From the IMG/VR virus record IMGVR_UViG_3300012665_001829, positions 1-44,356 of that record: a stretch of DNA of 44,356 bases; one strand, 5' to 3'. Both the position numbers and the translations under genes were made by a program. Of this stretch, positions 1 through 32,609 are shown one piece after another. Source of the stretch: a virus. Lineage: Duplodnaviria > Caudoviricetes. Below the pieces are notes generated by a model. The model had not been told where the DNA came from. It did no database searches and saw only the letters and a program-made list of their open reading frames with translations. Positions within the stretch are counted from its first letter, which is position 1; every line of letters begins with the position of its first letter.

Positions 1-2093
1 GTTCTTGGACTAGAGCGGTTGATATGTCATTAGACGATGATGTTTTTACAGGGTTGGGGGTATATGTAAATTCAGGAGCAACTCATTCAGGTAAAAATTT
101 TGTTATTACAACAAGTAATCCAATTATTTTAGGTAGTACTTCTTTAACGTTTGCACAATCTTCAGGTTCTGGTTCTTCAGGAACAAGTGGAAGTTCTGGT
201 ACATCAGGCTCTAGTGGAAGTTCTGGTACATCAGGTAGTTCAGGAACTAGCGGAAGTTCTGGTTCTAGTGGCTCATCTGGTAGTTCTGGTTCTTCAGGAA
301 AATCAGGTACATCAGGTTCTTCAGGAACAAGTGGAAGTTCTGGTACATCAGGTTCTAGTGGTAATTCAGGTACATCAGGTTCTTCAGGAACAAGTGGAAG
401 TTCTGGTACATCAGGTAGTTCAGGAACTAGCGGAAGTTCTGGTTCTAGTGGCTCATCTGGTAGTTCTGGTTCTTCAGGAAAATCAGGTACATCAGGTTCT
501 TCAGGAACAAGTGGAAGTTCTGGTACATCAGGTTCTAGTGGTAATTCAGGTACATCAGGTTCTTCAGGAACAAGTGGAAGTTCTGGTACATCAGGTAGTT
601 CTGGTACATCAGTAACAGTGTCAGGAACAAATAATACTATTGTTAAATTCACATCAAATTCAACTATCGGGAACAGTACCCTTGTTGATAATGGAACTGA
701 TGTTAGAGGAACTAAAGGATTTTATCTTGCGGTTAATGGTGCAGCACAAGACCCATACGGTGCAATATCAGTAATAAATCCAAATAACACGTCAAATTAT
801 TCTTATTTTGGGATGACAAGAAGTACCGAAATAGGTATTGGAATGGGTATAACAACTGGAAATGAAGTATGGTTTGGAGGTGCTGCTTCAGGAGCCGGAA
901 CATCTACAGTATTATCGGGTAGTGCGTGGTTTAGATTTAGCGCAAGTAATGCAATATTTAACGGTAACGTAGGTATTAATGGTGGAGCGCTCACAATAGA
1001 AAAAAACGGAACAACAAGTACAATTACTTTTCCGGCCCAAACAAATGACCCTGGATTTATACAACACTATGAATCATCCAACACGGCAGTAATGTATTTC
1101 TCTGTATCAGATGATATTGGAACTACTGACTATTTTGCTTTTGGTGCTAATGGTACATATAACACAATAATATATACAAACGGAAGGGTTGATTATGTTT
1201 CTTGGAATGGATATGGATATGCGGTTGCTGCAACAGCAAGTACTTTCGTATTAAGAGGTACCAGTGGTGAAATCACCGGAGGTTACATTTATGGTTCGTA
1301 TTTTAATTCATCCGCAGGAAATTCAGAAAATCCTACTATTGGTCAGATTTGGACACAGAATACTGGTGATGATTTCTTAAGAAAATCAACACCGGCTCAT
1401 TTTAGAAGTCAAGTTACTGATTCATATTATGTACCTATTAGAGGTGTGTCTAACTGGAACAGTTCACCATCTGTAATAAATAAAGTTGTGGGAATGATAG
1501 GGTGGAAACATTATGGTAATGGCCATATAATATTTGACGCATCTAATAGTACAAATCCAGATGGAGGTACAATAAATAATGCAAATCCTTCTGTTTCTTG
1601 GTCAGGTACATACCCAACATTGATGGGATGGAACGGTACTGACACTTATGGGGTAAGAGTTGATATAGCTAAAAGGGTTGATATAGAATTCAACAATGAT
1701 ACTAACTCTACCTATCAAATGTTATGGGGTTCGGGAACTCTTTTATATGGTACTGCTGGAATTTATTGTAATCCGTCCACTGATACACTATACACAAATG
1801 GTGATGTTGTAGCATATGCTTCATCAGATAGAGCATTGAAAGATAATCTTAAACTAATTGAAAATGCAATTGATAAAGTTAATCAAATCGGAGGTTATAC
1901 ATTCGAATGGAATGATAAACAACAAGTATATACTGGTACCGATATCGGTGTAATAGCTCAAGAAATTGAGGCAATCTTACCTGAAATCGTAACAACTAGA
2001 GAAAATGGATACAAAGCTGTTAAATACGAAAAATTGATACCTGTATTGATTGAAGCAATTAAAGAATTAAAAATTTTAATAGATAAAAAATAG
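1..2093 (+). CDS. Tail fibre protein (5' partial) with Gly-X-Ser repeat and C-terminal peptidase S74 intramolecular chaperone
   Basis: The frame is open to the window edge (SWTRAVD precedes the Met at 24). C-terminal SSDRALKDN...GVIAQEIEAILPEIV...YKAVKYEKLIPVLIEAIKEL is a typical S74 chaperone domain. Confidence 0.9.
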   Translation, partial: SWTRAVDMSLDDDVFTGLGVYVNSGATHSGKNFVITTSNPIILGSTSLTFAQSSGSGSSGTSGSSGTSGSSGSSGTSGSSGTSGSSGSSGSSGSSGSSGKSGTSGSSGTSGSSGTSGSSGNSGTSGSSGTSGSSGTSGSSGTSGSSGSSGSSGSSGSSGKSGTSGSSGTSGSSGTSGSSGNSGTSGSSGTSGSSGTSGSSGTSVTVSGTNNTIVKFTSNSTIGNSTLVDNGTDVRGTKGFYLAVNGAAQDPYGAISVINPNNTSNYSYFGMTRSTEIGIGMGITTGNEVWFGGAASGAGTSTVLSGSAWFRFSASNAIFNGNVGINGGALTIEKNGTTSTITFPAQTNDPGFIQHYESSNTAVMYFSVSDDIGTTDYFAFGANGTYNTIIYTNGRVDYVSWNGYGYAVAATASTFVLRGTSGEITGGYIYGSYFNSSAGNSENPTIGQIWTQNTGDDFLRKSTPAHFRSQVTDSYYVPIRGVSNWNSSPSVINKVVGMIGWKHYGNGHIIFDASNSTNPDGGTINNANPSVSWSGTYPTLMGWNGTDTYGVRVDIAKRVDIEFNNDTNSTYQMLWGSGTLLYGTAGIYCNPSTDTLYTNGDVVAYASSDRALKDNLKLIENAIDKVNQIGGYTFEWNDKQQVYTGTDIGVIAQEIEAILPEIVTTRENGYKAVKYEKLIPVLIEAIKELKILIDKK
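171..611 (+). repeat. 49 consecutive Gly-X-Ser triplets containing an exact 180-bp tandem duplication
   Basis: GSS/GTS/GKS/GNS triplets; 213-421 is identical to 393-601. Confidence 0.95.
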
Positions 2094-2107
2094 TTAATGT
2101 TTATATA

Positions 2108-2136
2108 TTGACATTACTGTAAAAAGAATTTATTTT
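2108..2136 (+). promoter_or_regulatory. Putative sigma70-like promoter
   Basis: TTGACA-N17-TATTTT upstream of the ATG at 2164. Confidence 0.4.
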
Positions 2137-2163
2137 TTTCTTTCAGAAAAATATACAAAAAAT

Positions 2164-2508: not shown

Positions 2509-2537
2509 ATAGCTGAAAACATAGGTTATTAATATAC

Positions 2538-2585
2538 GGGTTACTTAAATCAAAGTTAGTAAGATTTAAGTAACCCATTTTTTTT
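2538..2585 (+). terminator. Intrinsic terminator between convergent genes
   Basis: Perfect 14-bp inverted repeat GGGTTACTTAAATC (2538-2551) / GATTTAAGTAACCC (2563-2576) followed by a T-run. Confidence 0.8.
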
Positions 2586-3312
2586 ATAAAAATTCAGAAT
2601 TATCAATATAGATTATAACTTCAGTATAATATTCTATAAAATGTTCATTGAACAAGTCCCACTTTATATCAATACCGTCTACTGAAAAAACATTTATTTT
2701 TTTAAATTCCACTAAGAAAGTATCTCTAAAATTTCTAAAACTATTTTTTAGTTCTAAAGAAGACAAATGCCATTCACCAACAACATTACGGATTTTATTT
2801 TTAATAAAAGGTAAATTTTCTTGTGTAAAAATATGGTACTCACCACCCTCACAATCAGTTTTCAAAAAATCAATTTTCTCAATATTATAAAGGTGACAAA
2901 ACATATCAAATGTGATTCCTTCCATTCTATTATCACCGCCAAATATTTCATTATTTATTTCAAAAGAATTTATATTAGAAATTCCTTTATTAATTGGTGT
3001 TACAGGATATCCACAAGTATTCTTCGCCAGAATAGGAAATTCTACATTACTTGGTTCTAAACAATAAACATGTTTAGGGTTTTTATGTAAAATACTATAA
3101 GTAAAAGGACCATTACTTGCTCCTATATCCACAACAATATCATTTTTTTGAACTTCAAAAAACTTTTCATAAAGTCCCTGAATGAAAATTTCATTTATAA
3201 TTTGTTTTCTGTGGTACTCGCCCAAATTTGTTATTTCTCCTTTAATAACAATTTCTATATCATCAGAGCCCATCCAACCCCAATCGAAGTTTTCTAATTT
3301 TAATTTATCCAT
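2584..3312 (-). CDS. FkbM-family methyltransferase
   Basis: VVDIGASNG SAM motif, CLEP, IDFLKTDCEGGE. Start reassigned to the ATG at 3312, just after the upstream stop. Confidence 0.88.
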   Translation of the reverse strand: MDKLKLENFDWGWMGSDDIEIVIKGEITNLGEYHRKQIINEIFIQGLYEKFFEVQKNDIVVDIGASNGPFTYSILHKNPKHVYCLEPSNVEFPILAKNTCGYPVTPINKGISNINSFEINNEIFGGDNRMEGITFDMFCHLYNIEKIDFLKTDCEGGEYHIFTQENLPFIKNKIRNVVGEWHLSSLELKNSFRNFRDTFLVEFKKINVFSVDGIDIKWDLFNEHFIEYYTEVIIYIDNSEFL

Positions 3313-3314
3313 AT

Positions 3315-6206
3315 TTATATTTTTTTTGCAAACAAGTGCACAACATCCCAAGATTCATGTATGTGTTCAAAAAATGTTTGGAACCCATTTGTGTTGAATT
3401 TATGTAAGATTTTCATGAACTTCCATAGAAGTTCTTTTTTACTACTATCATCAAAATTTGAACTATAAAAATGAGTGTGAAACTCTATTGCCCATTTATC
3501 AACTTTTAATAAGTCAGAGACTTGAATTTTTTCAAATAAATCCCATTCATCGCCTTCTATATCAATTTTTGCAAAATTTATTTTAACAATTTTATGTTGT
3601 TCCAAAATTTTTTGGATGTCAAAATCATCCCCACCAACTTTCCCTAATGTAGAAACTACCGGTAAATTTTCTGTGTTTTTTAAAAGACATTGATAAAAAG
3701 TTTCATTTATTTCATAACTAAAAATTTTAGACGCTCCCATCTGGTGAGCGTAATTTGAAAAAATTCCAACATTACCACCGGCATCCAAAACATTATCACC
3801 AATCTCAATTTTGATACCAAAACGATTATATTCGTTTTCATCAAAAATTTCTTTGATAAAATTTTCTGTAAGATTTTCTTCGCCTTCAGGACAAATAAAT
3901 TTCTTTTTTTCCACTAAATTTAACTTGTTAAAAACTTGTTCAGGGGTTATTGATTTTTGACATATGTGTTGTTTTTTCGTTCCTTTATAAAGAGGGCACC
4001 AATCCCAATCACCACCATCAAAAACAAACCCTTCGTCATTCCAACAAGATATACAAACATTTTGATTTTGAATTCTAGTTACATTTTTTGTAAACTCATG
4101 ACCTGCCTTTGCAAATCCATTTATCATATAGGTATGTTTTCCTATGGACCAATTCAACCATGATAAACCTGAACCAAGACCTATAAAAATATCTGCGTGG
4201 TTTAATATGTTTATCACATCATTCATAGGTTTGTTGGAGTAATTTTTAACTCCGTCAATAATAAAAGGAGACTTTGTTAAGGTAACAACATCATATCCTT
4301 TTTTTATTAATAATTTTGATAACTCAACCCAATAGACGTAGACCCATTCTTTGCAACCGGCAGTTGCTTGAGGACCAAAAACAACGTATTTGTTTTTGAT
4401 TGGCCTTTCTTTATTTGGTATTTTAATACCGTAGTTAACTTCTTTGAAGTCCAGCCCCAAAATATCTGTCGCTGCTTGTTGTAATGGTATTATATTAACC
4501 TGATTTGGGTTTCTGTCAAAGTCTTCCCATTTTTCATTTTTTTTAAACCAACCTAATCTATAAACGGCAATACATTCATGAGATTCACTTGGGTTTATGA
4601 ATTTGATATCTTTGTATTCATCAAGACCCTCAAATAGGTGGTTATGAAATGTGGACATTATTACCTTACATTTATATTTTTTCGCAAATTCAATAGAATA
4701 AGGAACCCATGCCAATGTATCGCCCAAAGATTTTGATTCCATTGAAATTAAAACATTTCGGTTTTCAAGATTAAATTCATCAACTACTTCACCGTTTATT
4801 CTAATTTGCCAAGGGATATAATATTTTTTACCGCAAGAGGTCCACATGTTATTTTTTATTGTACTTGAATGTAAAACTTCATTAGTTGTTTTATTAACAA
4901 ATTCTACTAAATAGATTTTATCTTCATCACCTAAAATCTCAACTTTTGGACCATCCAAGTAAGTTATTTCTATTTTATTTTTCTTAAAGGGTTTTATTTC
5001 TTTAGATAAGAAAGGAAGTTTTTTGATAAACTCTTCAATTGTATTATAACCTATCTGTGCAACATTCTCCCAATTAAATTCTTCTCTGATATATTTTGAT
5101 TCGACAAGCGATATTTTTTTAAACGTTTCGTATTTTTCATACACTAATCTCATCATTTCAGATAAATGATTAAAATCTGGCTCATAATAGTTACCAACCA
5201 TTTCGTTAAAATGATTGTATGAACTTTCATTTGCTGGTTTTTCGCCCAATACATTAACAGGAATACCTCTACCTTCCGCAAATTCTAATTGACCTGAACA
5301 ATTAGAATATATTGAAGGTGTACCACAAGCCATGGATTCGATTAACGGTAAATTCCAACCTTCACTTCTGGCACAAGAAACAAAACAATTACAAGATTTT
5401 AGAATATCAATATATTCGTTACGTGAAGGAAAGTGTAAGATTTTAATCCTTTCATCCTCCAATCCATAATGTTTTAATCTCTCTTCAGTTGTCTTTAGAC
5501 CATCATTAGAGAATGGATTGTCAACAGATATAATCAAGTCAACAGGTTCATTCTTATCAAAAGTTTTCAAAAACGTTTCGATTATTTCCTTTATCGATTT
5601 TCTGTAATCCCATCTTCCCGCCAAGAAGAACTTAAATCTTCCGTCTGATGTTGTTTCATGTCTAACTTGAGGGTTAGGAAAAAAAACGTGGGAATCAACA
5701 CCTTCAGGAACAACTTTTATTTTATTTTCAGGATATCCTTGTTTTATCATACACTCCATTTGCCACTTTGAAGGTACCCACATTTCATCAAACTCTAACA
5801 ATTTGTTAAAATATTGTTCAGGTTGCAAAGTGGTTTCCCATACATTGTATGCGATTTTGGGACCATTGTATGTGTCATAGAATATATGGTGGTTTGATTC
5901 ACATAATACAATATTCAAATCATGCTCAAATTCTTTTTCTATTGATGGATAAATCGGGTAGTTACCTCTTTTCCCATTGGCTTCCCAAAGAATTTGTTGG
6001 TATAGTATTTTTTTATCTGTTTGATTAAAATATGGTTCTTTATCATGAGGATTTAGGGTATACCCATCCCAAGTATTACCGATGGTAAAGTTTCTTACCT
6101 TAATGTCAGCATGTTTTGTCAATGCTCTGAAAAAATCACGAGTATGTTGGTTGTAACCTGTGTTACCAACGTAAGAACCATGAGCGTATATTTTTGGCCT
6201 TTTCAT
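3315..6206 (-). CDS. Fusion: GT4 glycosyltransferase + Aah/TibC-like (autotransporter) O-heptosyltransferase + FkbM methyltransferase
   Basis: N-terminal RSEGWNLPLIESMACG (GT4). Middle SLGDTLAW, FIGLGSGLSWLNW and CISCWN...WCP...HICQKSIT (four-Cys iron-finger pattern of Aah/TibC). C-terminal LDAGGNVG and KIDIEGDE (FkbM). Confidence 0.85.
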   Translation of the reverse strand: MKRPKIYAHGSYVGNTGYNQHTRDFFRALTKHADIKVRNFTIGNTWDGYTLNPHDKEPYFNQTDKKILYQQILWEANGKRGNYPIYPSIEKEFEHDLNIVLCESNHHIFYDTYNGPKIAYNVWETTLQPEQYFNKLLEFDEMWVPSKWQMECMIKQGYPENKIKVVPEGVDSHVFFPNPQVRHETTSDGRFKFFLAGRWDYRKSIKEIIETFLKTFDKNEPVDLIISVDNPFSNDGLKTTEERLKHYGLEDERIKILHFPSRNEYIDILKSCNCFVSCARSEGWNLPLIESMACGTPSIYSNCSGQLEFAEGRGIPVNVLGEKPANESSYNHFNEMVGNYYEPDFNHLSEMMRLVYEKYETFKKISLVESKYIREEFNWENVAQIGYNTIEEFIKKLPFLSKEIKPFKKNKIEITYLDGPKVEILGDEDKIYLVEFVNKTTNEVLHSSTIKNNMWTSCGKKYYIPWQIRINGEVVDEFNLENRNVLISMESKSLGDTLAWVPYSIEFAKKYKCKVIMSTFHNHLFEGLDEYKDIKFINPSESHECIAVYRLGWFKKNEKWEDFDRNPNQVNIIPLQQAATDILGLDFKEVNYGIKIPNKERPIKNKYVVFGPQATAGCKEWVYVYWVELSKLLIKKGYDVVTLTKSPFIIDGVKNYSNKPMNDVINILNHADIFIGLGSGLSWLNWSIGKHTYMINGFAKAGHEFTKNVTRIQNQNVCISCWNDEGFVFDGGDWDWCPLYKGTKKQHICQKSITPEQVFNKLNLVEKKKFICPEGEENLTENFIKEIFDENEYNRFGIKIEIGDNVLDAGGNVGIFSNYAHQMGASKIFSYEINETFYQCLLKNTENLPVVSTLGKVGGDDFDIQKILEQHKIVKINFAKIDIEGDEWDLFEKIQVSDLLKVDKWAIEFHTHFYSSNFDDSSKKELLWKFMKILHKFNTNGFQTFFEHIHESWDVVHLFAKKI

Positions 6207-6218
6207 TTATAAGTTTTA

Positions 6219-6251: not shown

Positions 6252-6256
6252 ATACT

Positions 6257-6901
6257 ATGTCGCAAGGAGTTCATAAAATAACTGAAGATTTTGAAAAGGC
6301 GTTATGTGATTATACAGGAGCACCTTATGCAATTGCATTAGATAATATGAGTAATGCGTTGTTTCTATCGTTATATTATGAGAAAAATATTAAAAAGTCT
6401 TTAGATGACGACTTTGTGGATTGTCCGTCAAGAACGTATCCATCAGTTCCTTGTGAAATTATTCATGCTGGACTTAAAGTTAATTTTGTGTCTGTTGAGG
6501 GTAAAACAATTAAAGGGTCGTATAGATTATCTCCATCAAATGTTATTGATTCTGCATTACATTTTACAGCAGATATGTATGTTCCTGGCACACATATGTG
6601 TTTATCATTTACCGGTCCATACAAAACTTTAAAATTAAGTAAGGGTGGAGCAATCATTACAGATGATTATCGGGCGATGCTTTGGTTTAAACGAGCAAGA
6701 TTTAGTGGAAGGAGAGAATGTTCATATCACGATGACCATTTTGATATGTTAGGGTGGAATTTTTATATGATGCCTGAACTTGCGGCTAGAGGACTTTTAA
6801 TGATGACACAATTTTATAACTTGGATGGAACAAAAAAACACAATGATGATTTGGAGTTACCATATCCTGATTTGTCTAAATTTGAAATATACAAACAATG
6901 A
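6257..6901 (+). CDS. DegT/DnrJ/EryC1/StrS-family PLP sugar aminotransferase (short form)
   Basis: FEKALCDYTGAPYAIA, IDSA, CLSF...K, GGAIITDD, GWNFYM..LAA.GL. Confidence 0.82.
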   Translation: MSQGVHKITEDFEKALCDYTGAPYAIALDNMSNALFLSLYYEKNIKKSLDDDFVDCPSRTYPSVPCEIIHAGLKVNFVSVEGKTIKGSYRLSPSNVIDSALHFTADMYVPGTHMCLSFTGPYKTLKLSKGGAIITDDYRAMLWFKRARFSGRRECSYHDDHFDMLGWNFYMMPELAARGLLMMTQFYNLDGTKKHNDDLELPYPDLSKFEIYKQ

Positions 6902-7476
6902 AAAAAGTATTGGTTGGTAATGGTGGACACGCAAGAGAAGTAATGGCTCAAATGGGTATTAAATTAGATAGATTCGTTGATGACCGATACTCTGATAACG
7001 AAACACTACCGATATCTAAATTAGACCCTGAAGAACACACAGTTATGGTTGCGGTTGCTAATTCAAAAGATAGATTCGATATTACTCAAAGACTACCAAA
7101 AGGAATTCAATTTTTTACTTTTATACATCCCACAGCACTTATTATGGATAATGTTGAGATTGGGGAAGGTAGTTTTGTAGGTGCTTATTCAATATTAACA
7201 ACAAATATAAAAATAGGTTCGCATGCAATTTTAAATAGAGGTAATCATATTGGGCATGATTGTAGAATAGGTTCTTATTTCAGTGCAATGCCAGGAGCGA
7301 TTGTTTCAGGTAATGTAACCATTTATGATTTAGTTTATATGGGAAACAATTCCTCAATTAGAGAAAAATTATCGGTACATAGTTTAACAACAATAGGTAT
7401 GAATAGTGCGGTTGTTAAAGATATTGAATACCCTGGAACCTATGTTGGTTGCCCCGTAAAAATAATTAAATCATGA
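6898..7476 (+). CDS. NeuD/PglD-family sugar acetyltransferase
   Basis: GNGGHAREV Rossmann start, IHPTA, HIGHD, hexapeptide repeats, VGCP ending. ATGA-coupled to the aminotransferase. Confidence 0.88.
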   Translation: MKKVLVGNGGHAREVMAQMGIKLDRFVDDRYSDNETLPISKLDPEEHTVMVAVANSKDRFDITQRLPKGIQFFTFIHPTALIMDNVEIGEGSFVGAYSILTTNIKIGSHAILNRGNHIGHDCRIGSYFSAMPGAIVSGNVTIYDLVYMGNNSSIREKLSVHSLTTIGMNSAVVKDIEYPGTYVGCPVKIIKS

Positions 7477-8378
7477 ATCTAAAATGGGATAATAATAAAA
7501 TAACATTTATAATAGATACGATACATTCAATTGGATTCGAATCTAAAGGGGCATCAATTGCTTGTCATAAATTGGCATATGAGTTATCTAATCAAGGACA
7601 CTATGTTTATATATTTAATGACCCATTATTTCCTCATCCTAACATTGAAATAATTCCTGTTGAGAAAAAAGATGAAGATGATGGGTGGTGGAGTTCGTTT
7701 TATTGGGAACCATTTATCTTTAATTTTAATAGAACGGTATCAATTTATACTCAAATTACATGGGGAAACCCAATGAATACAATTCATAATGTTAGATGGT
7801 TATTACATGATTACGATGAAAACCAATGGGGAACTTTTGGGAGAGAAGACCAAATTTTTAATTTTGGGACATTTGCTGTACCTGAAGGAATTAAACAATC
7901 ACCATTAACTGTTTTCGATTATAATTTTGATAAATTATACAATACTAATAATCCAAGACGAAAAGGATTTGGACACATTATACATAAAAATACTCCTAAT
8001 TGGGGAAAAGATTTTTTAAATCAATTTGGTTCAGTAGAAATACCGCATTACAACGGAAAGAAAGATTTGGATTATTTGTTAGATGAATTTAACAAATATG
8101 AATATCTATTAACATTTGACGATAAATCTTATTACACTTCAGCTGCAGGATTGTGTGGTACCAAAAGTGTTATATTAAATCCAAATAAAGATATAACTCC
8201 GATTGATTATAGAATGAAAAATCCAATTCAAATGTGTGGAGTTGCTTATGGGTTTGATGACATTAAGTGGGCTAATGATACAATTGGATTAGTTAGAGAA
8301 AATTTATTACAATTAGAACAAAGAGACAAAAAAACAATTTTAAATCTTATTGAATATTGGAAAAACAAATTGCTTTAG
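7473..8378 (+). CDS. Putative glycosyltransferase-like protein (WavQ-like)
   Basis: KGASIACHKLAYELSNQGH, GNPMN...VRWLLH, AGLCGTKSV, GVAYG; sits in a glycan operon. Confidence 0.5.
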   Translation: MNLKWDNNKITFIIDTIHSIGFESKGASIACHKLAYELSNQGHYVYIFNDPLFPHPNIEIIPVEKKDEDDGWWSSFYWEPFIFNFNRTVSIYTQITWGNPMNTIHNVRWLLHDYDENQWGTFGREDQIFNFGTFAVPEGIKQSPLTVFDYNFDKLYNTNNPRRKGFGHIIHKNTPNWGKDFLNQFGSVEIPHYNGKKDLDYLLDEFNKYEYLLTFDDKSYYTSAAGLCGTKSVILNPNKDITPIDYRMKNPIQMCGVAYGFDDIKWANDTIGLVRENLLQLEQRDKKTILNLIEYWKNKLL

Positions 8379-10246
8379 TAGAGGTTTGGTTGGGTAAAAT
8401 ACCCGAGTATTTCAAATACCACATTGAAACAATCGGGTCAATGACTTGCGTTGATTTTTATTTCCTGACAAACGATAAAGATTATGATTTCTCTTATATT
8501 AAACATTCAAATTTTATCTTACATTACATTTCCGAAGATGGGTTTTTAGAAAGATTTAATAACAACTCAAAAGTTAAGGTAGATAAAATATATACCCCAA
8601 AAAAGATTATTGATTTCAAATTGGCATATTTTGATATGTTCCAAGACATTGTTGGTGAATACCCTTATGTTGGAATTTATGATATTGATACAATGTTTGG
8701 AGACATAAACCCGTTTTTACTACAGTATATAAAAGAATATGATTTCATTTCGGTTGGGGATGAAGTTTACCATAATAGATTAAGTGGACCATTGTTGATT
8801 ATGAAGAACACAGAGGAACTTCGTAGTTTGATGAGAACAGACAGATATTATGAAACACTAAAGATGGACGGCATTTATGGGTATGGGGAACAAGAGCTAT
8901 CAACAATTGCGATAAAAAATTATAAGACAAAGATTATTCACTCAATGAATACTGAAGTTGGTAATGGAGGTAAAACAACATACAATGTTTGTTGGAGTGG
9001 CGGTAAATTAAAAGTGAATGATGAGGAAAAAATGATTTATCATTTTTATAGAAAATCGTATACAATTTTTACTAAAGTGGGTAATAAAATTTATGCCAGA
9101 TATAATAAAAAATTCGTTGATGATTTTTATTGGGTTTTTGGATTTACTGAAAACTATTCAGAAACAATTTTTTATTTACTTGATTCATTACAAAATTATT
9201 CAGTAAGAAAATGTATTATTTATACAATAAATTTTGATTATGATTTACCTGAAAAGTTTTTAACTAGTCAACAATTTATAGTCAGAAGAATCGATATAGA
9301 AACGGGAAAAAAAGATTATAGAGGTAGAGATGAAAACATTATAAGTTGTAAACCAAAACTTATGATAGATGTTGTTGACACATATCCCAAAAGTAAATTT
9401 ATTTTTATTGATAGTGATGTTTATTTAACAACCTCTGCAGATGACATATCAAGGTATTTTGATGAACTAGAAAACTACCCACTTATAAATTCTCATATAC
9501 ATGATAAAATTTACTTATGTGGACTTGTGGAAGGTGAAGAACGTACAAGTACTGTCGATGTTTTGGCGAGAAAAGTTGAGGTTGAAATAAAAATCTTCCC
9601 AAGAAGAAAGACCAATGTTATTTTATTTGACAAAAACTCAAAATGGTTTTTTCAAGAACAGATAGAAATGTATGAAAAATATAAAGATACTGAACCTGGA
9701 ATTTTTGCGTTACATGATGAAGATTCTGCTAACGTAATATTATCGAAGTATGATTTTCAAAAGTCTTTACATCTTTGTGATATAGAAGAAACCAATGATA
9801 TTGAAATATCAAAATTTACTGACCTTAATCATCCGTTTCATATTACAGGACTTTCGCCATATCTTAAGTTACCTAATAATCAAAATGATATTGTTATTTT
9901 TCATGGTTTAAAGGAACCAAAAAGATATCAAGATATTCAAAAAGTATACGGGAATAAAGTTTTAGACTGCGAAGAAATTTTGGTATATTATAATAACAAT
10001 ACAATATATTTTGAAAAAAATTCTTTCTTAAATACAAAAAATATTGATGAACCTGTAGATTTTATAATAAAAAATAAATCAGGAGATATAATAGAAAAAT
10101 TACCAAATCAACCTTTACACGGATACTGGTTATTTTACATTTCAAATGTGAATCTGACGGACAATTATTACCATATCGAAATAATAAAAACTAATTCTAA
10201 ACAAAAAATTTATAACAACATTTTATGCACTACTCAGCTTATGTAA
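8357..10246 (+). CDS. Two-domain putative glycosyltransferase (DUF6625-like + GT-A/DxD domain)
   Basis: WLGKIPEYF, DFKLAY, YDIDTMFGDI (DUF6625-like); second domain KPKL...FIFIDSD...DE. TTG start uncertain. Confidence 0.6.
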   Translation: MEKQIALVEVWLGKIPEYFKYHIETIGSMTCVDFYFLTNDKDYDFSYIKHSNFILHYISEDGFLERFNNNSKVKVDKIYTPKKIIDFKLAYFDMFQDIVGEYPYVGIYDIDTMFGDINPFLLQYIKEYDFISVGDEVYHNRLSGPLLIMKNTEELRSLMRTDRYYETLKMDGIYGYGEQELSTIAIKNYKTKIIHSMNTEVGNGGKTTYNVCWSGGKLKVNDEEKMIYHFYRKSYTIFTKVGNKIYARYNKKFVDDFYWVFGFTENYSETIFYLLDSLQNYSVRKCIIYTINFDYDLPEKFLTSQQFIVRRIDIETGKKDYRGRDENIISCKPKLMIDVVDTYPKSKFIFIDSDVYLTTSADDISRYFDELENYPLINSHIHDKIYLCGLVEGEERTSTVDVLARKVEVEIKIFPRRKTNVILFDKNSKWFFQEQIEMYEKYKDTEPGIFALHDEDSANVILSKYDFQKSLHLCDIEETNDIEISKFTDLNHPFHITGLSPYLKLPNNQNDIVIFHGLKEPKRYQDIQKVYGNKVLDCEEILVYYNNNTIYFEKNSFLNTKNIDEPVDFIIKNKSGDIIEKLPNQPLHGYWLFYISNVNLTDNYYHIEIIKTNSKQKIYNNILCTTQLM

Positions 10247-11373: not shown

Positions 11374-12296
11374 TGAAAAAAATTGCTCTTATAAGTTCAT
11401 TTTGTAATGATGAAAATAAAATAAATGTTCTCATATCAAACATTAAAAAATTGAAAGAAATGAACTTTGATATTTTGGTTATATCACCAATTCATTTAGA
11501 TGCTGAAGTTATAAAATATTGCGACTATTATTTTTTCACAAAAGACAATCCAGTTTATAATTGGCCTTTGAGAGGTTGGAATTTTTGGAGAACATTTTAT
11601 TTAGATGAAAAACATGTAAAAATTTCAAAAACAGTTTCAGACTATGGATGGGCGTCACTAAATCAAATTAAACAATTGAATGCTGTTGCGTTAAATTTAG
11701 ATTACGATTATTACTATCATCTGATTTATGATTTGAAAATAGACGAAGACATTATAAAATATTTTTTAGAAACCAGCGATAGATTAGTTTTTCCGTCTAA
11801 GAGAGGAGAGACTATTTGGAAAGTAGGATTACATCTTATGATTTTTAATAAAGAGTATTTGAAAATCTTTAATAACCATATTAGAGAAGAGAGTTACAAT
11901 TCGATAGAAGAGATTGAAAGTGTTTTTGATTGGTTGTATAAGATTGTAAATATAATACCACTTAAAGTGGCGGAAAGTGCGGTTGAGGATGAAATTTATT
12001 TATATGAAAACGAAGATATTTTTAACTACTCCACGGAGAATAGATTCAAATTTTTTATTGACAAAAATGACAAAACTTTGGAGACCATCAAAATATTATT
12101 TTATGATGTTAGGGAGGAGTTGAAATTATTATTACCGCAAAATAATAGGATAGAATTTATTAATCGAGACTGTATAATTGAATTAGGATTTAATAAACTA
12201 GACATGAAACAAGTTTTTATACAAGTGGAAGACAAAATTACTGATATAACTGAACTTATACTTGAGGTTAAACACAATACATTAGAATTTTTATGA
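11373..12296 (+). CDS. Hypothetical protein of the glycan operon
   Basis: 307-aa ORF, translationally coupled on both sides; N-terminal half is loosely GT-A-like. Confidence 0.65.
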   Translation: MKKIALISSFCNDENKINVLISNIKKLKEMNFDILVISPIHLDAEVIKYCDYYFFTKDNPVYNWPLRGWNFWRTFYLDEKHVKISKTVSDYGWASLNQIKQLNAVALNLDYDYYYHLIYDLKIDEDIIKYFLETSDRLVFPSKRGETIWKVGLHLMIFNKEYLKIFNNHIREESYNSIEEIESVFDWLYKIVNIIPLKVAESAVEDEIYLYENEDIFNYSTENRFKFFIDKNDKTLETIKILFYDVREELKLLLPQNNRIEFINRDCIIELGFNKLDMKQVFIQVEDKITDITELILEVKHNTLEFL

Positions 12297-24100: not shown

Positions 24101-25254
24101 TAACTAATACTGAAACGCCAACAAATACTCCTACAGGAACTCCAACTAATACGCCAACCAATACTCCAACAAATACCGTAACTAATACTGAAACGCCAAC
24201 AAATACTCCTACAGGAACTCCAACTCAAACACCTACAAACACTCAAACCCCAACAAATACACCAACACCTTCATCAACATCATTAGATTGTAATGGATGT
24301 AATTACTATACTGTTGTTATAACACAATTAGACATAGATAATAGTCCTGATAATAAAGTTTATATAAATTATACAAATTGCGATGGTATTGTTACCCAAG
24401 AATCATTTAGTTATGCAGGAACTTACAACAGTGTAATTTGTGTTAAAAATTGTCAACCAGTAACTCTTTGTTGGTATAATTATGATGGAAACCCATTATG
24501 TACAACACCATCTAATGGTTCGCAAGTTATAAATACATATACATCTTGTAAAACAATAGAATATTCTTGTCCGGCAACTTTCAGTTATACTGTAACACAA
24601 CCAGGATTAGTTACAATCAGTAGTCCTTCTGTTAATTTAGGTTTGAATTATGGAAATGTGGACGTGTCAATAACTGGTACAGGAATAAATAATAATGTAC
24701 AAGTATTTGTCGGAACTTACGATACACTATATGGTGAAGTATTCCAATTCACAACAAATGGAACACAAACAAAAACTGTAGGAATATATAGGCAAACTAA
24801 TTACACAACATTAGACATTGTGGTTAATACTGATTCAGTAAGTGTTGAGGACTTTACACCATATACTTTAACTTTCAATGTAACTTGTCCTACACAAATT
24901 GTTTGTTCTAATCCAACAGTTTATATAAACGCGTGTGGAAGTGACCCGGCAGATGGTTTAGGCACCGCAAGTGTTACAGTTAGAGCGATGGATGTAAACA
25001 CGTTTATCGGAACTCCAATAGACGTTGATACAACGTTAACGGTTTATGTTGTGGGAATAGGTTCTGTTAGTGGAAATCATGGTGGAAATATAACAATAAA
25101 CAACGGAAGTAGTTGTGGAACTGGTACAATTAGTGGATTTAATAATAACGAAGTTATTGATGGATACACTGTGGTAAGTATTTCTCCAACATCTTCTTTA
25201 ACCCAAAACTACTCAACAGGAATAGGATTTAGGAATGATTGCTGGACTTGTTAA
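21148..25254 (+). CDS. Large Thr/Pro-rich mucin-like Cys-rich protein (putative virion fibre)
   Basis: 1368 aa; two long T/P tracts (~22555-23030 and ~23270-24270). Confidence 0.8.
23377..24122 (+). repeat. Near-perfect 324-bp tandem duplication (~2.3 copies)
   Basis: GCCAGGTTTATCGCCTAGTG occurs at 23571 and 23895; off-frame ORFs at 23588 and 23912 are almost identical. Confidence 0.9.
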
Positions 25255-25279
25255 AATAAATTGATAATTATAATTAAAA

Positions 25280-25576
25280 ATGGGAGTGATTAATATACCT
25301 GAAGTTTCTTATGGTACTGCCTTTGGAAATGTAAATAAGGCGGTTTGGTTTAAACCAGAATCCAATACTGCTGGTTATTTTGATGTTAATATTACGGTAG
25401 TACCAAATACAACAATATCAACACAAATCAATATTTACAATTATTCTAAAAATAGGTCTATGTATGGAAGAACTTATTTACCTAACCCATCACAAACACC
25501 AATAAACGATAAATTGACAATAACACACAATCCAACACTATTGTCACAATATTATGTTTTAACTAATAAATCATGA
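25280..25576 (+). CDS. Hypothetical beta-rich protein
   Basis: 98-aa ORF, ATGA-coupled to the 1670-aa gene. Confidence 0.7.
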
Positions 25577-28500
25577 GTACTTTTGAAGTATTATGTCCGT
25601 CACCTTTATATGATATACCTGACGTAACAGAATGTCTAACAGAAAAAACAGTTACCTGGTCAAACCCTGGTGTACAGTCAAAACAATTCTATGTTCTTGG
25701 TTTTACTTATAGAACTTTGGGAATTAGGTTTACTCCCATCACAAATAATGGTTCAACCATATCCGTTGCTTTGAAGTATAGTAAAGACGGAATAGTTACT
25801 ACCCAACAAACTTTTTCATTATCAACATTACCAAGTACTGTTACAAAATACCATGATTTACTATTTTCAAGTGATTATTCGGTGGATTCTGGATTTTTAT
25901 TTTTTGAAGTAACAATAACAGGTGGTTCATCAGGTTCATTTAAAATATTTTTAGATTGTGATGTTACTGTTTGCCAAGATTGTTTTTGTTATGTTCCTTT
26001 AACAACAAAGTATACTGATTTGTGTAATAATTGTGATGTTGAAAGCTCTGTAACACTATATTGGGAATGTAGTCAGAGTGGTGATAAAAGTTTTATAAGT
26101 TATGGTCCTTGGTATACTGACCCAGAGCTTCAGACACCTGCACCCGCTGGATATTATACACAATGTGCAAATAGATACTATGGTGACGCCAAATTAGCAT
26201 ATACTGGGGGTGTATATAAAGGATTGAATAATCCGACAATTTTTAAATATCCTGGAGGTACAGGAACCGCAACTGTTCAAGCCGTTTGTGGGGCGGATGA
26301 TTTAATTTATTGTACCACAGGTGTTGATAGTAAAACCTTGACACACACAAAAACAGGATATACTGCAAATAACCCTTATATAGTTTATAATACAAATCAA
26401 CCTAAGTCTACATTGAAATGGTCAGTTAAATCAGTTGTAATACAACTTGACAGTTTTGACCATCAAGTTGTTCCAATAAAAGTATGTTTTACTGGTAGGG
26501 CTGAATCAATTGTATTCACAGTTTCAGACCCAACAGTACCGGAAGGTGTTGGGGAGTTGTCTTTTTCAGGTACTAATTTGACTGGAGATAATTTTCGTTT
26601 CATTGATTTAAATACTCTTTTTACGGTGAATCCATTAACTAAAAAAGGTATTGCGGGATGTCTAACAATAAATGTTAATGTAAACGGTTCGGATGTTATG
26701 AAAACAGGGAGATTACTTGTTAGAGTTGCTGTCGGACAAAATAGAAAATACAACTCAAATTTACCTGTTTATACCTCTGTTTCTGCAATGTGTCCTTCGT
26801 TTCCTGTTTATGGCTATAACATGGGACTACATACGTATTCTGCGTACGATAGTGCATACAGTTCAAAATTGAGCACCAAATTATATTCATTGACTTCGGT
26901 GGGTAGTTGGATAACAAATACCAAAGTATTTAATGACCCATTTTTAGGTCACCCTGCATTACCATGGTATTATTCTTATGGTGATTATGTTTATAAAGTT
27001 GGTATACCATTCAAAAGAGAATATGCAACAAAAATATCTTTTAAACAATATTCAAGCCAAATTAGGGCTATAGGTGCTTTATTGGGAATAACAAAGAAAC
27101 CTTATATAATTAAAGAGGTGACTTTGGGACCTAAAGATTGGTTTGATTCAATCGGAGGACAGCAGAAAGTGCCAAATTGCATTAATCCTTTAATGGACCC
27201 AGGTGAAATATGGAAAGTTTATGCTAAAAGTTCCGTACCACAACCATCCAAGTATTGGTATTTAGTCGGATTCAACGCAAATAAAGAACTATCCAATGAC
27301 AATTATTTTAATTACTGGAATTTTCAAAGTAAAACTTTAATACCAATAACAGGGTATGAACACGCGACAACAAGATTACCTCAAGGGTATGTGGACGGAG
27401 TAACAAAGTTCAATGACCCTGCGGTTAGAGGTCTTAATGGTAGTGGGTGGAAACAGATGGCAATAGCGGGACTTATAAATATAGTCGGTATTGTGGCTAG
27501 TACTGTTTTAATAGTTAATACTGGAAGTGTTTCAGATTTGACTAAAAGATGGTTTAGGAAGTGTCCTAGCTGGTTGAATAAATTACTTTCAGCATTAGTA
27601 CCAAAAGCGCAAAAATTCTTACCATGGCTTGCTCTTGCTAATTCACTATTCCAATTATTTAGAAGAAGAACTACTAATTTTGATGAGGTTTGTGGTAACT
27701 TTGAAAATGCGTATACAACAACACCATATATAGAACTAAATACGAGGATTTGGAATCAACCAGAATTTACAACATCTAACTCAGGTTATTATTGTGATGG
27801 CGCATACTTTTATACTCAAAATTCAAATCAAGTACAGACTAAAGAAATTTCTTACACCGATGATGGTGGTGTTAAGGACTTTTCTTTAGCACCTGATGAC
27901 CCAGTATTTGTTGACGATATACCATCTCTTTTCTTTTTACCTTATGTGTCAGGAAGACCAATACAATATTCTACCGGTACAATATATTATAATGCATCGC
28001 AAGTGAGTATTCAAACGCCTACAGAGGTAGGTGAATTAAATAATCCTTTACCCGTAACTTACGAAGTTCCGGCAGGAACAATACAATCTTTTGTATCTCA
28101 AATAGAAGCTGACAATGATGCGGTTGTTTATTTAGAACAATTGACCGCTAACACAATTTCAATAGTTGCTTCATCTGAACCTAAACCAAGTATTAGTGGA
28201 GAAACTATTACGTTCACACATGTAATTGCAAATGAGAACACACCATCTAATTTTGGAGTTTTTTATGATAACTCCGACTCAAATGGAATTACCATAGGTA
28301 AAAAGTTGTATTATGATTGCAATGGGTATTTTACCACTCTTAACGGATATTATTCAATTCCCGTGTATAATGGTGATTATAAGTATTTTTATAAACTAAG
28401 TGCCGGAACAGTTGTTGATGTATTAACAATGTCATCATCTACTGCACAAGATGTAACTTCACAAGTAAATAGTCAAAAATATCCAATAGAAACAACATAT

Positions 28501-30585
28501 AATGAGTATACAAGCACATGGTATTTTTCATCACCTGTGTATAATAATATTCAGTTTAATCAAATGAATAATTTATACAATTTCAATAACATTTGGAATA
28601 CTGAAGATTTTTATTCAAATGATGTTGTATACAAAGGACTAAGTTTGAATCCTAATAACAATGAATCTATTTTATTGTATGACGATAATTTAACAGGTAC
28701 TACAGTTTATTCCGCAAATACTTCTTGGTATTTTGAAATACCGCAAGTTTACAATTCAGAACCTTTCGTTTATTCAACAGGATTTACAATTACAATAAAT
28801 TCTGTTCAACAATGTTCTAGTGATAGTTTTAATGGAGTTTTATTCCAATGTGTTGATAGTGATGGAGAATTTATACCTTCTTCTTATGGAGTTTCTTTTG
28901 ATGTTTCAATATATACAGGATATACCTATGATTCTACACATACAGTTGCAATTCAAGGAAATGAGTATGAAAAATTACTACCTTTAAATGTTAACTACAT
29001 AGGACAAATCACAAGTATCAATATTACAGGATATAACTCACCAAACCCTATTGACGGAATAACTTTTGTTGAAGGTACTTTTACTCCATGTAATGTTCCT
29101 ACACCAACTTCTACACCCATGGAAACTTCAACACCTACACCTACACCAACAACACCTGAATTTACTTACACACCAACACAAACTCCAACACAAACTCCAA
29201 CCCCAACCAACACTCAAACACCTACAAATACCCAAACACCTACAAATACTCAAACTCCAACCAATACTCAAACCCCTACAAATACAGAAACACCAACTCA
29301 AACCTCAACCAATACCCAAACACCTACAAATACTCAAACTCCAACCAATACCCAAACCCCAACCAATACCCAAACACCTACAAATACTCAAACTCCAACC
29401 AATACCCAAACACCTACAAATACAGAAACACCAACTCAAACACCTACAAATACTCAAACACCTACAAATACTCAAACTCCAACCAATACTCAAACTCCAA
29501 CCAATACTCAAACACCTACAAATACAGAAACACCAACTCAAACACCTACATCAACTCCTATATCTGCTTTTTATCTGAGAGTTAATGACGCGACAGATTG
29601 TGTCGGTGTCTGTGGTGGAAGCGGTGCTCAAAATTTCGTATATTCACCGTGTAGTACTTTAAATGTAGGATGTTATTTATATGCAAATTTCGGATTGACA
29701 GTTCCTTACTCAAATTATTTTTTAACTGATGGAACAAATTGTTACGAGACTGATGCCTCAGGTCAAATTGTAAATGAATCAATTTGTCCATCTCCAACAC
29801 CAACACCAACTGAAACTCCAACCAATACACCTACAAACACACAAACACCTACAAACACACAAACACCTGAAAGTACACCAACACCAACTCCAGTATATTT
29901 CTCAGATATAACTTCTGACCCTGAAACAACTGAAACTGAGGCTTGCGGTTCAATATTCTTTAATCCAGACCAAACTGTTGGTAATCAAACAACTTTCTGT
30001 AGTAGTACTACTTTGACAAATCCGTCTTATGGTTCACTCTCCACTGGAACATACTACATTTCGTATGGAGGACAGGTCGTTACTGTTGCAATAACTAATG
30101 GTGATAATACTGCAGATGTCATGAGTTCTTGTAGTACTTGTCCAAGTCAAACACCTACACCAACTCAAACTGAAACGCCAACACCTACACCAACTCAAAC
30201 TGAAACGCCAACACCTACACCAACAACGGCAGGAATTAGTGATGTTTATATTAGTGCAGGAGGAGACCAAACGTTTGACTCTTCTGGTGACTATACTTAT
30301 GTTTTATACGCGGATACGACATCAAATAGTTATGGTGTAAACCCTATAAATGTAGAGGCATCTCCATTAATTGCTTATGTTGATATAATTGCCGAATACG
30401 GTACTTACTCTGGTAGTGGAATTATTGGAAATGGATTCTCATGTTCCTATAATTATTATACGGACGGGGTTCATCCATTACAGTTTGTTTCAAGTATAAC
30501 CATTACAGGAGTATCTCCTTCATCATCAGGAAACCAAAATTATACGGCTAGTGGTGGCGATGTAGGCACACATACTTGTCCATAA
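25573..30585 (+). CDS. Large modular putative virion protein with hydrophobic segment, DUF5977-like motif and TPTNTQ tract
   Basis: 1670 aa; [20 protein letters not shown] hydrophobic stretch; [23 protein letters not shown]; T/P tracts near the C-terminus. Confidence 0.78.
29200..29550 (+). repeat. Degenerate 18-bp tandem repeat encoding TPTNTQ
   Basis: Repeated ACWCCWACMAATACYCAA-like units. Confidence 0.85.
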
Positions 30586-30607
30586 AAAAAATAAAAAAAA
30601 ATAAAAT

Positions 30608-30835
30608 ATGACAAATTATTACAAACTAACACAAGCTGATTTATATTGGAAGATAGTCGATGAAACAACAACAGTTTTACAAATTAAAAATTCTACGGAC
30701 GCTATGGGTATAACCAAAACAACAGGTGTTGCAAGATATGAGGTACTAATACCTAATATTCCAAAATGGGATGTTAGCGATGAAACAGAGTTTAATTCTG
30801 TAATGGCTGAAGTTCTTAGTGCAATAAATAATTAA
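30608..30835 (+). CDS. Small hypothetical protein
   Basis: 75-aa ORF with an A-rich leader. Confidence 0.7.
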   Translation: MTNYYKLTQADLYWKIVDETTTVLQIKNSTDAMGITKTTGVARYEVLIPNIPKWDVSDETEFNSVMAEVLSAINN

Positions 30836-30947
30836 TAACTGGTTTATTTGTTGTAAAACATAAGTTACCATTATTTATTAATAAACGTATATTAGTCGGA
30901 TAGTTTTAACTATAACGTATTTATTGATACAAAATACTCCTGAACCA

Positions 30948-32609
30948 ATGCAAATTTATAAATTAACAAATGATTGTGATGTATTCACATTATTTCCGTT
31001 AGGTGTCGAATGTGTCACATTATCCAATGTGAGTTCAGCGAATAGTCTTAATGGTTCTTTATCTTTGAAAATTACAGGAGGAACAAGTCCTTATACCATA
31101 TCTTGGAGTAATGGACAAAAAACAAAAACTATTTCAGGTTTGGGTCCTGGTAGTTACGAGGCTCAAGTGATTGATTATTATGGTGATTATACGGCAACAA
31201 CAATTTGTTCTTTATTGGAACCAACACCATCACCTACACCGACATTAACACCTACGCCAACACCAACACCTACAGGTATATATCCAAATTTGTGTTTATC
31301 AATAGTAACATGTCCTGCAATTGTACCAATACAATTCACTTCAAGTTCAATACAAAACGGAAAACCAAGTTGGTCTTCATCTGCGGGGTATCTTATTGTT
31401 TGGAATGTAACACTACAGCAATGGGAGATACAAAACTATACGGTCTCAGGAGGTATACTTGTTAGTAAGACAGCTTCAATACCACCTTTATCTGGATGGT
31501 TTGTATTAGGAGGAACATCAAGTCCGACTGTTGCAATGACATCAGGAACTTGTCCATCATATGCACCACTTAATACAACAATCCAAAAAACAGATTCTGA
31601 TTGTAGTAATAATGGTAGTATAGTAATTGCAACATGTGGAGGACAATCACCATATCAGTATTCTATAGACGGAGGTAGTACATTTACAACATCTAACATA
31701 TTCAATAATTTATCACCGCAAACTTATAACATAATAGTGAAAGACTCATTAGGTAATACGTCAACCGCCACATCAACTATTTCAAGTAATTCTACAGGAG
31801 TTACGAGTTATGGTTTATTAATATCAAACTATAATACAACAACCATAAATGATGGGTATATTAGAAGTTCATGGTCAGTAAATGTTGTACCGCCAATACC
31901 ACAAGGAACACAAATATCATTTAAAATAATTGTTAACTCAACACAAATAGTTAACGGACCTGGTTCGGGTACAACATCTAGTTTGACAAACATATATAGC
32001 GGAGGTACTTTAATAAGTGCGTCGAGCAGCGACAGTAATACTAATATAAATACAAGACCAAATTGTTCACCTGAAACTACGACGATAACAGACATTAACG
32101 ATGTATATGATGTAACTCTTGGTTATGGATATGGTATCAGTGGTGTTACATTCTCCAACCTTAATATTACATCAGGAGTAACTTCTCTTAATGGATGTGT
32201 AACTAACTTAACACAAAACATTTCTGTTTTTGCCTCATCAGGTTTGATATCTGGTTGTAACTGTTGTACAATAAACACAGATAGTTTTAGTTATGGTGGT
32301 GTTGAAAACCATTCATTGAGTGTCGGTCAAGGACAAACAAGTCAAACTTATTATAGTTTTATTGTGGGTGTTGGAACAACTGAAAATGGTGCATGTTTTA
32401 ACTATCAAGCGGAACAACCTACAAGATTAGTAAATCAATCTACTTTTGGAGTTGGAGCTACAATATACACAGGAAGCCCATCAAACCCTAAACCATTATT
32501 AGGTTTTAATAACTGTGTTTATAATGGTTATTTATATTATATGAAATCAGACACTGGACAAGTGATTGGACCTGTTTTAGGGTCGGGAAATTTACAAATT
32601 GGTTGCTAA
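30948..32609 (+). CDS. SprB-repeat-like Ig-fold putative virion protein
   Basis: GSLSLKITGGTSPYTISWSNGQ...GLGPGSY..QVID and GSIVI...GGQSPYQYSIDGG...FNNLSP.TY.IIVKD. ATG at 30948 preferred over TTG at 30924. Confidence 0.72.
   Translation: MQIYKLTNDCDVFTLFPLGVECVTLSNVSSANSLNGSLSLKITGGTSPYTISWSNGQKTKTISGLGPGSYEAQVIDYYGDYTATTICSLLEPTPSPTPTLTPTPTPTPTGIYPNLCLSIVTCPAIVPIQFTSSSIQNGKPSWSSSAGYLIVWNVTLQQWEIQNYTVSGGILVSKTASIPPLSGWFVLGGTSSPTVAMTSGTCPSYAPLNTTIQKTDSDCSNNGSIVIATCGGQSPYQYSIDGGSTFTTSNIFNNLSPQTYNIIVKDSLGNTSTATSTISSNSTGVTSYGLLISNYNTTTINDGYIRSSWSVNVVPPIPQGTQISFKIIVNSTQIVNGPGSGTTSSLTNIYSGGTLISASSSDSNTNINTRPNCSPETTTITDINDVYDVTLGYGYGISGVTFSNLNITSGVTSLNGCVTNLTQNISVFASSGLISGCNCCTINTDSFSYGGVENHSLSVGQGQTSQTYYSFIVGVGTTENGACFNYQAEQPTRLVNQSTFGVGATIYTGSPSNPKPLLGFNNCVYNGYLYYMKSDTGQVIGPVLGSGNLQIGC

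Follow-up and report, generated by a model that had tools for sequence, protein, structure and literature searches.

The window analysed here is the whole 44,356-base linear virus record IMGVR_UViG_3300012665_001829 (rated 14% complete), in which an island of sugar-modifying genes lies between a tail fibre with a G-[ST]-S tract and five genes whose products carry long Thr/Pro tracts. Judging from gene content here and in related records, we consider it probable that such phages encode two cytoplasmic starters of O-glycosylation that coat the fibres of the virion, and that the island decorates the resulting glycan. One starter would be a domain related to Aah and TibC, encoded in the island, which likely starts glycans on the Ser/Thr residues of the G-[ST]-S fibre arrays. 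The other would be a GT60 enzyme, predicted to lie outside this fragment, which likely adds N-acetylglucosamine (GlcNAc) to Thr of the TPTx tracts. Virion proteins are expected to fold in the host cytoplasm, where they would be within reach of soluble enzymes only. A sequence-only reading of the window had proposed that the phage O-glycosylates its own fibres, and this remains the best reading; the part in which the Aah-like enzyme would also modify the Thr/Pro tracts is not supported, as these tracts track GT60 (below).

The Aah/TibC-like domain and G-[ST]-S arrays

The Aah-like domain occupies residues 405-763 of the product of gene 3315-6206. It scores 228.2 bits against TIGR04414 (cut-off 200), aligns with the TibC structure 4RAP (E 1.6e-37), and reaches 20 bits against the lipopolysaccharide (LPS) heptosyltransferase I model, which has a cut-off of 185; it also scores to Pfam GT9. 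In TibC, according to the accessible passages of PMC4358343, Asp110 is the catalytic base, Thr226 and Lys230 contact the phosphate, Trp305 contacts the heptose, Arg286 makes the adenine contact that underlies ADP specificity, and the thumb and iron finger are dodecamer contacts. The window domain retains Asp110, Thr226, Lys230 and Trp305 (as D496, T615, K619 and W683) together with the iron-finger cysteines C718, C721, C737 and C749. Amongst 48 distinct phage domains, the catalytic Asp and Trp305 are present in all 48, Thr226 and Lys230 in 47 each, and the four iron cysteines in 46. Arg286 is replaced by Val664 in the window domain, and the Arg is kept in 2/48 phage domains versus 5/5 bacterial rows. 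At the sequence level, the beta-hairpin thumb has a 9-residue gap relative to TibC, both in the window domain and across its clade. With Arg286 and the dodecamer thumb lost, heptose is not assured as the sugar, and the donor is likely not restricted to ADP-heptose. GmhA was found in none of five Aah-bearing phage genomes.

With the BAHT enzymes (Aah, TibC; TIGR04414; PDB 4RAP/4RB4), the window protein shares being a soluble enzyme beside a Ser/Thr-rich repeat protein of adhesin type. It is unlike them in being fused to GT4 and FkbM domains and in having no autotransporter neighbour: none of the 29 window proteins scanned matches an autotransporter, and the neighbour is the G-[ST]-S tail fibre. 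Because three defining features fail (Arg286, the thumb and the adjacent autotransporter), we do not file the domain as a BAHT member; as an intact GT-B transferase of a protein-acting family, it is predicted to work like one. In a tree of Aah/TibC-like domains, the five bacterial rows make up one side of a branch with support 100; the tree comes from a quick method with midpoint rooting and has long branches meeting, and we claim no direction of transfer from it. The family is rare in GenBank phages (4/50,697 records) and has 1,581 clusters of similar length in metagenomes, bacterial members included. Short open reading frames (ORFs) of 218-229 amino acids (aa), at G009:269149-269472, G017:82729-83049 and G029:139119-139652, match the N-terminal part of TIGR04414 only, and G093/G094 carry a second, 302-aa Aah-like copy in tandem.

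Records were drawn from IMG/VR by pattern searches for G-[ST]-S arrays, for TPTx tracts and, as a control, for charged G-D-K collagen, which covered 2, 10 and 2 of its 64 parts, respectively. Whole-record searches used 15 G-[ST]-S and 26 Thr/Pro records, each of at least 90 kb, and 42 controls of at least 40 kb (11 of them at least 90 kb). A full-length Aah-like gene is present in 9/15 records selected for G-[ST]-S, in 2/26 selected for Thr/Pro, and in 0/42 controls. Both Aah-positive records of the Thr/Pro set also bear G-[ST]-S arrays, and none of the 19 Thr/Pro-selected records without arrays has the full gene. A second sample, chosen regardless of repeats, consists of 32 records, 22 of them selected by a clade marker (the gene starting at 32636 in the window) and 10 by GT60. 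In this sample, a G-[ST]-S array occurs in 8/12 Aah-positive versus 0/20 Aah-negative records (nominal Fisher p 5e-5, uncorrected for phylogeny); for three of the four Aah-positive records lacking an array, the Aah-like gene lies within ~5.5 kb of a contig end. The gene and the repeat are also found together in Mel-JY01 (190 kb), which has G-S-S repeats and lacks GT60, and in a 735-kb phage, and the TPTx pattern is found in 0/7 complete or near-complete Aah-bearing genomes from other groups. By these whole-record counts, the Aah-like gene travels with the Ser-rich fibre and not with the Thr/Pro tracts. The co-occurrence of Aah/TibC-like genes with repeats, suggested earlier as a test, comes out positive for G-[ST]-S arrays and is not supported for Thr/Pro tracts. 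Only the whole-record searches separate the two repeats: a locus test extending 10 kb to either side finds the Aah-like gene in 7/55 G-[ST]-S, 4/53 Thr/Pro and 0/78 control clusters. Contigs frequently break within the arrays (G024, G025, G026, G093, G094, G105), and G-[ST]-S fibres are therefore under-counted in assemblies.

GT60 and Thr/Pro tracts

The Thr/Pro tracts can be followed in G018, a close relative of the window with a 321-kb record and direct terminal repeats (complete). G018 has 15 Thr/Pro genes amongst its 295 genes, no G-[ST]-S array and no Aah-like gene, and a PF11397 (GT60) gene, at G018:63077-64327, lies 6 kb after its main Thr/Pro cluster. GT60 is present in 16/26 Thr/Pro-selected records, 1/5 further TPT-positive records, 0/14 TPT-negative records and 0/42 controls. 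Twelve of the 22 marker-chosen records have it, including 3/3 that are at least 90% complete, and GT60 and Thr/Pro tracts are both present in 5/5 records at least 90% complete (two of the five chosen by GT60). The gene directly upstream of GT60 is a Thr/Pro gene in 9/15 phage neighbourhoods and in 61/80 loci (20/32 clusters at 95% identity). The GT60 proteins of relatives match PF11397 over its full length (E about 1e-49 to 1e-63), and 80/80 loci have a DSH motif. Thr/Pro tracts were detected on called genes, a version positive in 4/78 control clusters that replaced a six-frame detector positive in 13/78. The near-complete, Thr/Pro-rich G018, G090, G109 and G110 have GT60 and lack the Aah-like gene, and G093 and G099 (98% and 96% complete) bear both enzymes and both repeats. 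We predict that the full genome of the window phage would, like these last two, contain the two enzymes together with the two repeats. A GT60 gene ~50% identical to the phage copies also occurs in a giant-virus bin that bears G-[ST]-S repeats (G003:C5:44829-45707).

GT60 enzymes start mucin-type O-glycans in Dictyostelium and Trypanosoma cruzi, and a related soluble cytosolic enzyme exists (as described in the available part of PMC8724618). What relatives of the window share with this protist system (CAZy GT60 polypeptide alpha-GlcNAc-transferases) is a PF11397 enzyme beside Thr-rich tracts. The differences are that the phage GT60 is phage-encoded, would act in the bacterial cytoplasm rather than the Golgi, lies outside the window, and has an activity predicted from sequence.

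The pairing of GT60 with Thr/Pro tracts recurs in isolated phages. Amongst GenBank phages, GT60 is found only in the Xanthomonas jumbo phage XacN1, in Xoo-sp13, in the Stenotrophomonas phage CM1 and in RAS14. TPT matches number 179 in XacN1, 141 in Xoo-sp13 and 71 in CM1 (0, 2 and 0 with reversed-pattern controls), and none occur in 14 large genomes that lack GT60, among them RsoM2USA, which comes next in capsid protein identity. XacN1 has many Thr/Pro proteins, as the window phage does, and in its group, as in the window clade, the GT60 gene is followed within four genes by one for an HtrL/YibB protein. Unlike the window phage, XacN1 and its relatives have no Aah-like match, and unlike in the window clade, GT60 in this group is not adjacent to a Thr/Pro gene. 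In XacN1, ORF325 lies directly after a baseplate-wedge gene and includes a short Thr/Pro tract. Schiff staining reveals at least two glycoproteins in the virions of this phage, with the two glycosyltransferases of the phage suggested as their source; the accessible text of that paper names neither GT60, nor Thr/Pro tracts, nor the modified proteins, and it reports a deposition of virion spectra (PXD008065; PMC5852040). The tracts contain little Lys or Arg, and tryptic digestion may have missed them.

Proposed pathway, counter-evidence and rival explanations

In the pathway that we propose, the two starters would be followed by GT4 and the neighbouring transferases, which would extend the glycan. 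The DegT-like and NeuD-like pair would make an N-acetylated amino sugar, and the FkbM, CmcI-type and hexapeptide enzymes would add O-methyl and O-acetyl caps, roles taken from the general functions of these tailoring families. Dense glycans would stiffen, hydrate and protect disordered stalks that bear adhesion or tip domains (LamG, SprB, others), and an exchange of the tailoring cassette would change the virion surface. Cassettes with an aminotransferase, an acetyltransferase and an O-methyltransferase tailor the sugars on repeat-rich surface fibres in giant-virus fibril clusters and in the collagen glycans of Bacillus BclA; these systems differ from the window phage in their hosts and in their initiating enzymes.

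Several observations weigh against this pathway. The sugar coat of Aah-bearing phages is a prediction from genes, and the known acceptors of TibC are autotransporter beta-helices, not G-X-S triplets. For XacN1, the text leaves the Schiff-stained bands unassigned to particular proteins. LR756504 (636 kb) has an Aah-like gene and neither repeat. Conversely, 6/15 array-selected records have no Aah-like gene (completeness is 84% and 77% for two of these, and one is a giant-virus bin), nor do 5/7 array-positive fragments of the Thr/Pro-selected set, all five of which have GT60. GT60 itself is absent from the 14%-complete window and from the 27%-complete G002, from G033 (76% complete), which has a 5,472-aa Thr/Pro protein, and from four more records whose Thr/Pro pattern is the same or similar. 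In G038 (89% complete), likewise without GT60, the contig ends inside the Thr/Pro cluster. G114 and G115 have GT60 without the TPT pattern. In 12 loci (L624, L648, L650-L653, L655-L659, L668), the gene immediately downstream of a G-T-S/G-T-N repeat gene encodes a divergent GT60, 40-50% identical to that of G018, and the locus lacks an Aah-like gene; the two enzymes therefore do not divide the repeats exclusively, the strict pattern misses interrupted repeats, and these loci suggest a GT60 subtype for glycine-triplet repeats. Thr/Pro tracts are present in 22/22 marker-chosen records, and with tracts near-universal in the clade, much of the GT60 association is predictable just from belonging to the clade. 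Finally, the records are related and partly duplicates (G018/G020/G042, G086/G092, G093/G094), so that the nominal p values, which lack a phylogeny correction, overstate the association.

The best-surviving alternative, which we judge unlikely, is that the island serves to alter LPS, capsule or surface proteins of the host against superinfection, using host lipid carriers and flippases, and owes its place among fibre genes solely to the variability of the region. It is the published reading of jumbo-phage sugar clusters (in the part of PMC7824862 available), and the GT9 score of the Aah-like domain and the patchy tailoring genes speak for it. A flippase, a polymerase or a lipid-carrier enzyme had earlier been noted as missing from the island, and none is visible there by family searches or by hydrophobicity (the 19-residue mean never exceeds 1.14). 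The island does not provide the membrane steps of an LPS or capsule cluster, for which host enzymes could substitute; because soluble enzymes could act on host lipid-linked intermediates, this absence does not exclude host-surface remodelling and is a weak argument for a protein target. What host-surface remodelling leaves unexplained is the occurrence of the Aah-like gene with G-[ST]-S arrays (8/12 vs 0/20) and of GT60 abutting Thr/Pro genes. Against it too, the Aah-like domain keeps the N-terminal part and iron finger of TibC, and scores those 20 bits to the LPS heptosyltransferase I model.

It is improbable, in our estimate, that a single system operates, in which the Aah-like or GT4 enzymes of the island modify the G-[ST]-S fibre as well as the Thr/Pro tracts. 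Both repeats flank the island in the window, G002, G024 and G034, and neither the window nor G002 contains GT60, as one system would have it. The 0/7 Aah-bearing genomes with TPTx argue the other way, as do the four Thr/Pro-rich genomes with GT60 and no Aah-like gene. We regard as quite improbable that the repeats are unglycosylated flexible or polyproline-II linkers, with the enzymes acting on capsid, sheath, host cytoplasmic proteins or small molecules, and that their linkage is inherited hitch-hiking in a few clades. The presence of Thr/Pro tracts in every marker-chosen record and the exceptions to enzyme-repeat pairing are in keeping with linkers; the adjacency of GT60 in 61/80 loci, its recurrence with tracts in the distant XacN1 group, and the fact that the Aah-like gene and the repeats are present or absent together in a single clade are not. 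Hypermodification of phage DNA against restriction is very improbable: phage glycosyltransferases are known to glucosylate DNA (in the accessible part of PMC12619734) and T4 glucosyltransferase clusters are a weak Atlas lead for the gene at 7473-8378 (0.84), but there is no base-hydroxymethylating partner among the island family matches, and the key enzymes come from protein-acting families and co-occur with repeat proteins.

Sugar clusters of large phages are usually interpreted as modifiers of host LPS or DNA, and Ser/Thr repeats are taken for low-complexity filler; pairing each enzyme with its repeat offers a concrete function for both, and acceptors amenable to synthesis. Virion glycans are already known from mycobacteriophages, at the C-termini of capsid and tail tube proteins (Freeman et al. 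2023, as cited in the available parts of PMC12619734 and PMC12582341). The window phage would likewise have glycans on virion proteins, and differs in its hundreds of predicted Ser/Thr sites in repeat stalks and in its enzyme families. In titles, abstract openings and passages (subscription journals and preprint supplements being outside the search), we found no paper that connects phage fibres with Aah/TibC-like enzymes or phage Thr/Pro proteins with GT60. New here are the whole-record split between two enzyme-repeat pairs and the loss of Arg286 and the thumb. More tentatively, at somewhat less than even confidence, we propose that large T4-like phages have a virion glycocalyx started by two independently recruited enzymes (Aah/TibC and GT60), each with its own repeat, that tailoring cassettes act as a surface "serotype", and that phage Aah-like enzymes (>1,500 database relatives, deep branches) are a large reservoir of the family that differs in donor and oligomer. 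If this is true, dense glycosylation of fibres would be a common unrecognised feature of large phages, with effects on adsorption, on stability and on how grazers or immune systems see phages, and there would be soluble enzymes for adding O-glycans to simple GSS or TPT tags inside a bacterial cytoplasm.

Genes of the window and its clade

As the sequence-only reading had it, an island of ~11 kb (2584-13692, ten genes) lies between the Ser-rich fibre and five Thr/Pro genes. The fibre, the island and the gene following it are:

3..2093, plus strand: tail fibre, open at the 5' end of the contig, with a G-[ST]-S tract and a C-terminal Peptidase_S74 chaperone (tail-fibre PHROG matches)
2584..3315, minus strand: FkbM-type methyltransferase (PF05050 E 1.5e-8; TIGR01444 41.9 bits, cut-off 37.7)
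3315..6206, minus strand: 963-aa fusion of a GT4 (~residues 1-395), the Aah/TibC-like glycosyltransferase (405-763; window 3918-4994) and an FkbM-like domain
6257..6901, plus strand: short DegT-like sugar aminotransferase, 214 aa
6898..7476, plus strand: NeuD/PglD/VioB-like sugar acetyltransferase (TIGR03570 157.7 bits, cut-off 160.8)
7473..8378, plus strand: phage family without Pfam match, weak GT-B glycosyltransferase lead (nearest named Atlas clusters at 0.84, a lead only)
8357..10246, plus strand: DUF6625 domain and a C-terminal domain also present in Aah-like fusion proteins of relatives
10225..11373, plus strand: S-adenosylmethionine-dependent methyltransferase fused to a CmcI/rhamnosyl O-methyltransferase domain (PF04989 E 1.5e-30)
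11373..12296, plus strand: protein without family assignment, present in 5/20 Aah-locus clusters
12293..12838, plus strand: hexapeptide-repeat O-acetyltransferase, Vat/CatB-like and under the cut-offs of those families
12835..13692, plus strand: weak FkbM-type methyltransferase domain (PF05050 E 0.0065)
13908..15692, plus strand: LamG/concanavalin-like protein (matches a "virion structural protein" PHROG)

In the fibre ORF, positions 171-611 encode 49 unbroken G-X-Y triplets (GSS 27, GTS 18, GKS 2, GNS 2). The length of the DegT-like aminotransferase is conserved in two relatives (213-214 aa; 90% and 75% identical), and it is possibly a real compact form rather than a fragment. A Vat/CatB resistance gene at 12293-12838 was rejected (118 bits versus cut-offs of 300-350). 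The order of the island is the same in G002, and parts of it are found in G034. Most tailoring genes matched only one of 20 Aah-locus clusters, which makes the decoration a variable cassette.

The Thr/Pro genes, with a small gene amongst them and the conserved gene that follows, are:

15815..19396, plus strand: Thr/Pro-tract protein with Cys-rich domains, 168 Thr in tracts
19396..19617, plus strand: 73-aa stand-alone copy of a small beta-sandwich domain that starts many Thr/Pro proteins
19617..21104, plus strand: Thr/Pro protein with the N-terminal beta-sandwich, a ~200-aa TPTx stalk and a C-terminal globular part
21148..25254, plus strand: Thr/Pro protein, 241 Thr in two tracts
25573..30585, plus strand: Thr/Pro protein with TPTNTQ repeats, 107 Thr in tracts
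30924..32609, plus strand: SprB-repeat protein with a short Thr/Pro tract
32636..34819, plus strand: conserved gene closing the variable region, used as the clade marker

The tracts of the five Thr/Pro genes (between 15815 and 32609) contain 611 Thr in total and have lengths of 401, 199, 522, 249 and 34 residues, versus maxima of 100, 88, 287, 42 and 21 in 100 shuffles each. The absence of evident signal peptides noted earlier is borne out, in that no N-terminal hydrophobic stretch is seen in the five products; in that of 25573-30585, a single hydrophobic stretch lies internally (2.45 at residue 630). From their position, we infer that the Thr/Pro proteins are virion proteins. The gene start earlier placed at 19587 is most likely at 19617, and the 73-aa gene before it had been overlooked. 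The small domain of ~70 aa and six strands occurs alone (19396-19617) or as the N-terminus of Thr/Pro proteins (19617-19826), with 28 distinct copies in the loci examined. Its predicted fold has a pLDDT of 81; a fold search at E <= 0.001 returned three uncharacterised phage proteins in BFVD, none in PDB and no named match, and there is a weak Kre9/KNH Ig-like match below cut-off (E 0.002). The domain may be a docking module for the stalks. A 75-aa ORF, below the 80-aa listing threshold, lies between two Thr/Pro genes (window 30608-30832).

Relative to the window, G018 is 50% identical in the 32636-34819 homologue, 73% in RuvC and 63% in SbcC, and it encodes a tail sheath, a T4-type baseplate, a portal and a gp23 capsid (amongst the 91 scanned of 170 listed larger ORFs without Thr/Pro tracts). 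From this relationship and these structural genes, we take the window as a piece of a ~300-kb T4-like myophage. INPHARED contains no isolated close relative that we could find. The product of 32636-34819 has a single-sequence AlphaFold pLDDT of 30 and Atlas matches to unnamed viral clusters only, which lends no support to a function as baseplate or fibre anchor. In G033, Thr/Pro genes occupy the interval right before the homologue of this gene, after a run of large conserved genes, the first of which has a weak gp6-like baseplate match (E 0.29, in the G018 copy). This gene order fits a variable fibre region in the window and is no proof of it. The long G033 protein (G033:107307-123725) is Thr/Pro tract over ~5,030 of its 5,472 aa, and a separate block of genes at 153-164 kb in G033 looks glycosyltransferase-like, going by the N-terminal sequences only. 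C-terminal sorting domains of type IX secretion, which we take to be associated with Bacteroidota, are present in 2/5 near-complete records (G018 and G093) and suggest a Bacteroidota host for the clade. Searched with the Aah-like domain, GTDB genomes yielded a single match of 20 residues and no host or donor information. The right third of the window is a replication block (RuvC-like, primase, exonuclease, SbcD, SbcC and Dam), which includes an S-adenosylmethionine decarboxylase at 37601-37996 and the Dam-family methyltransferase at 43397-44239.

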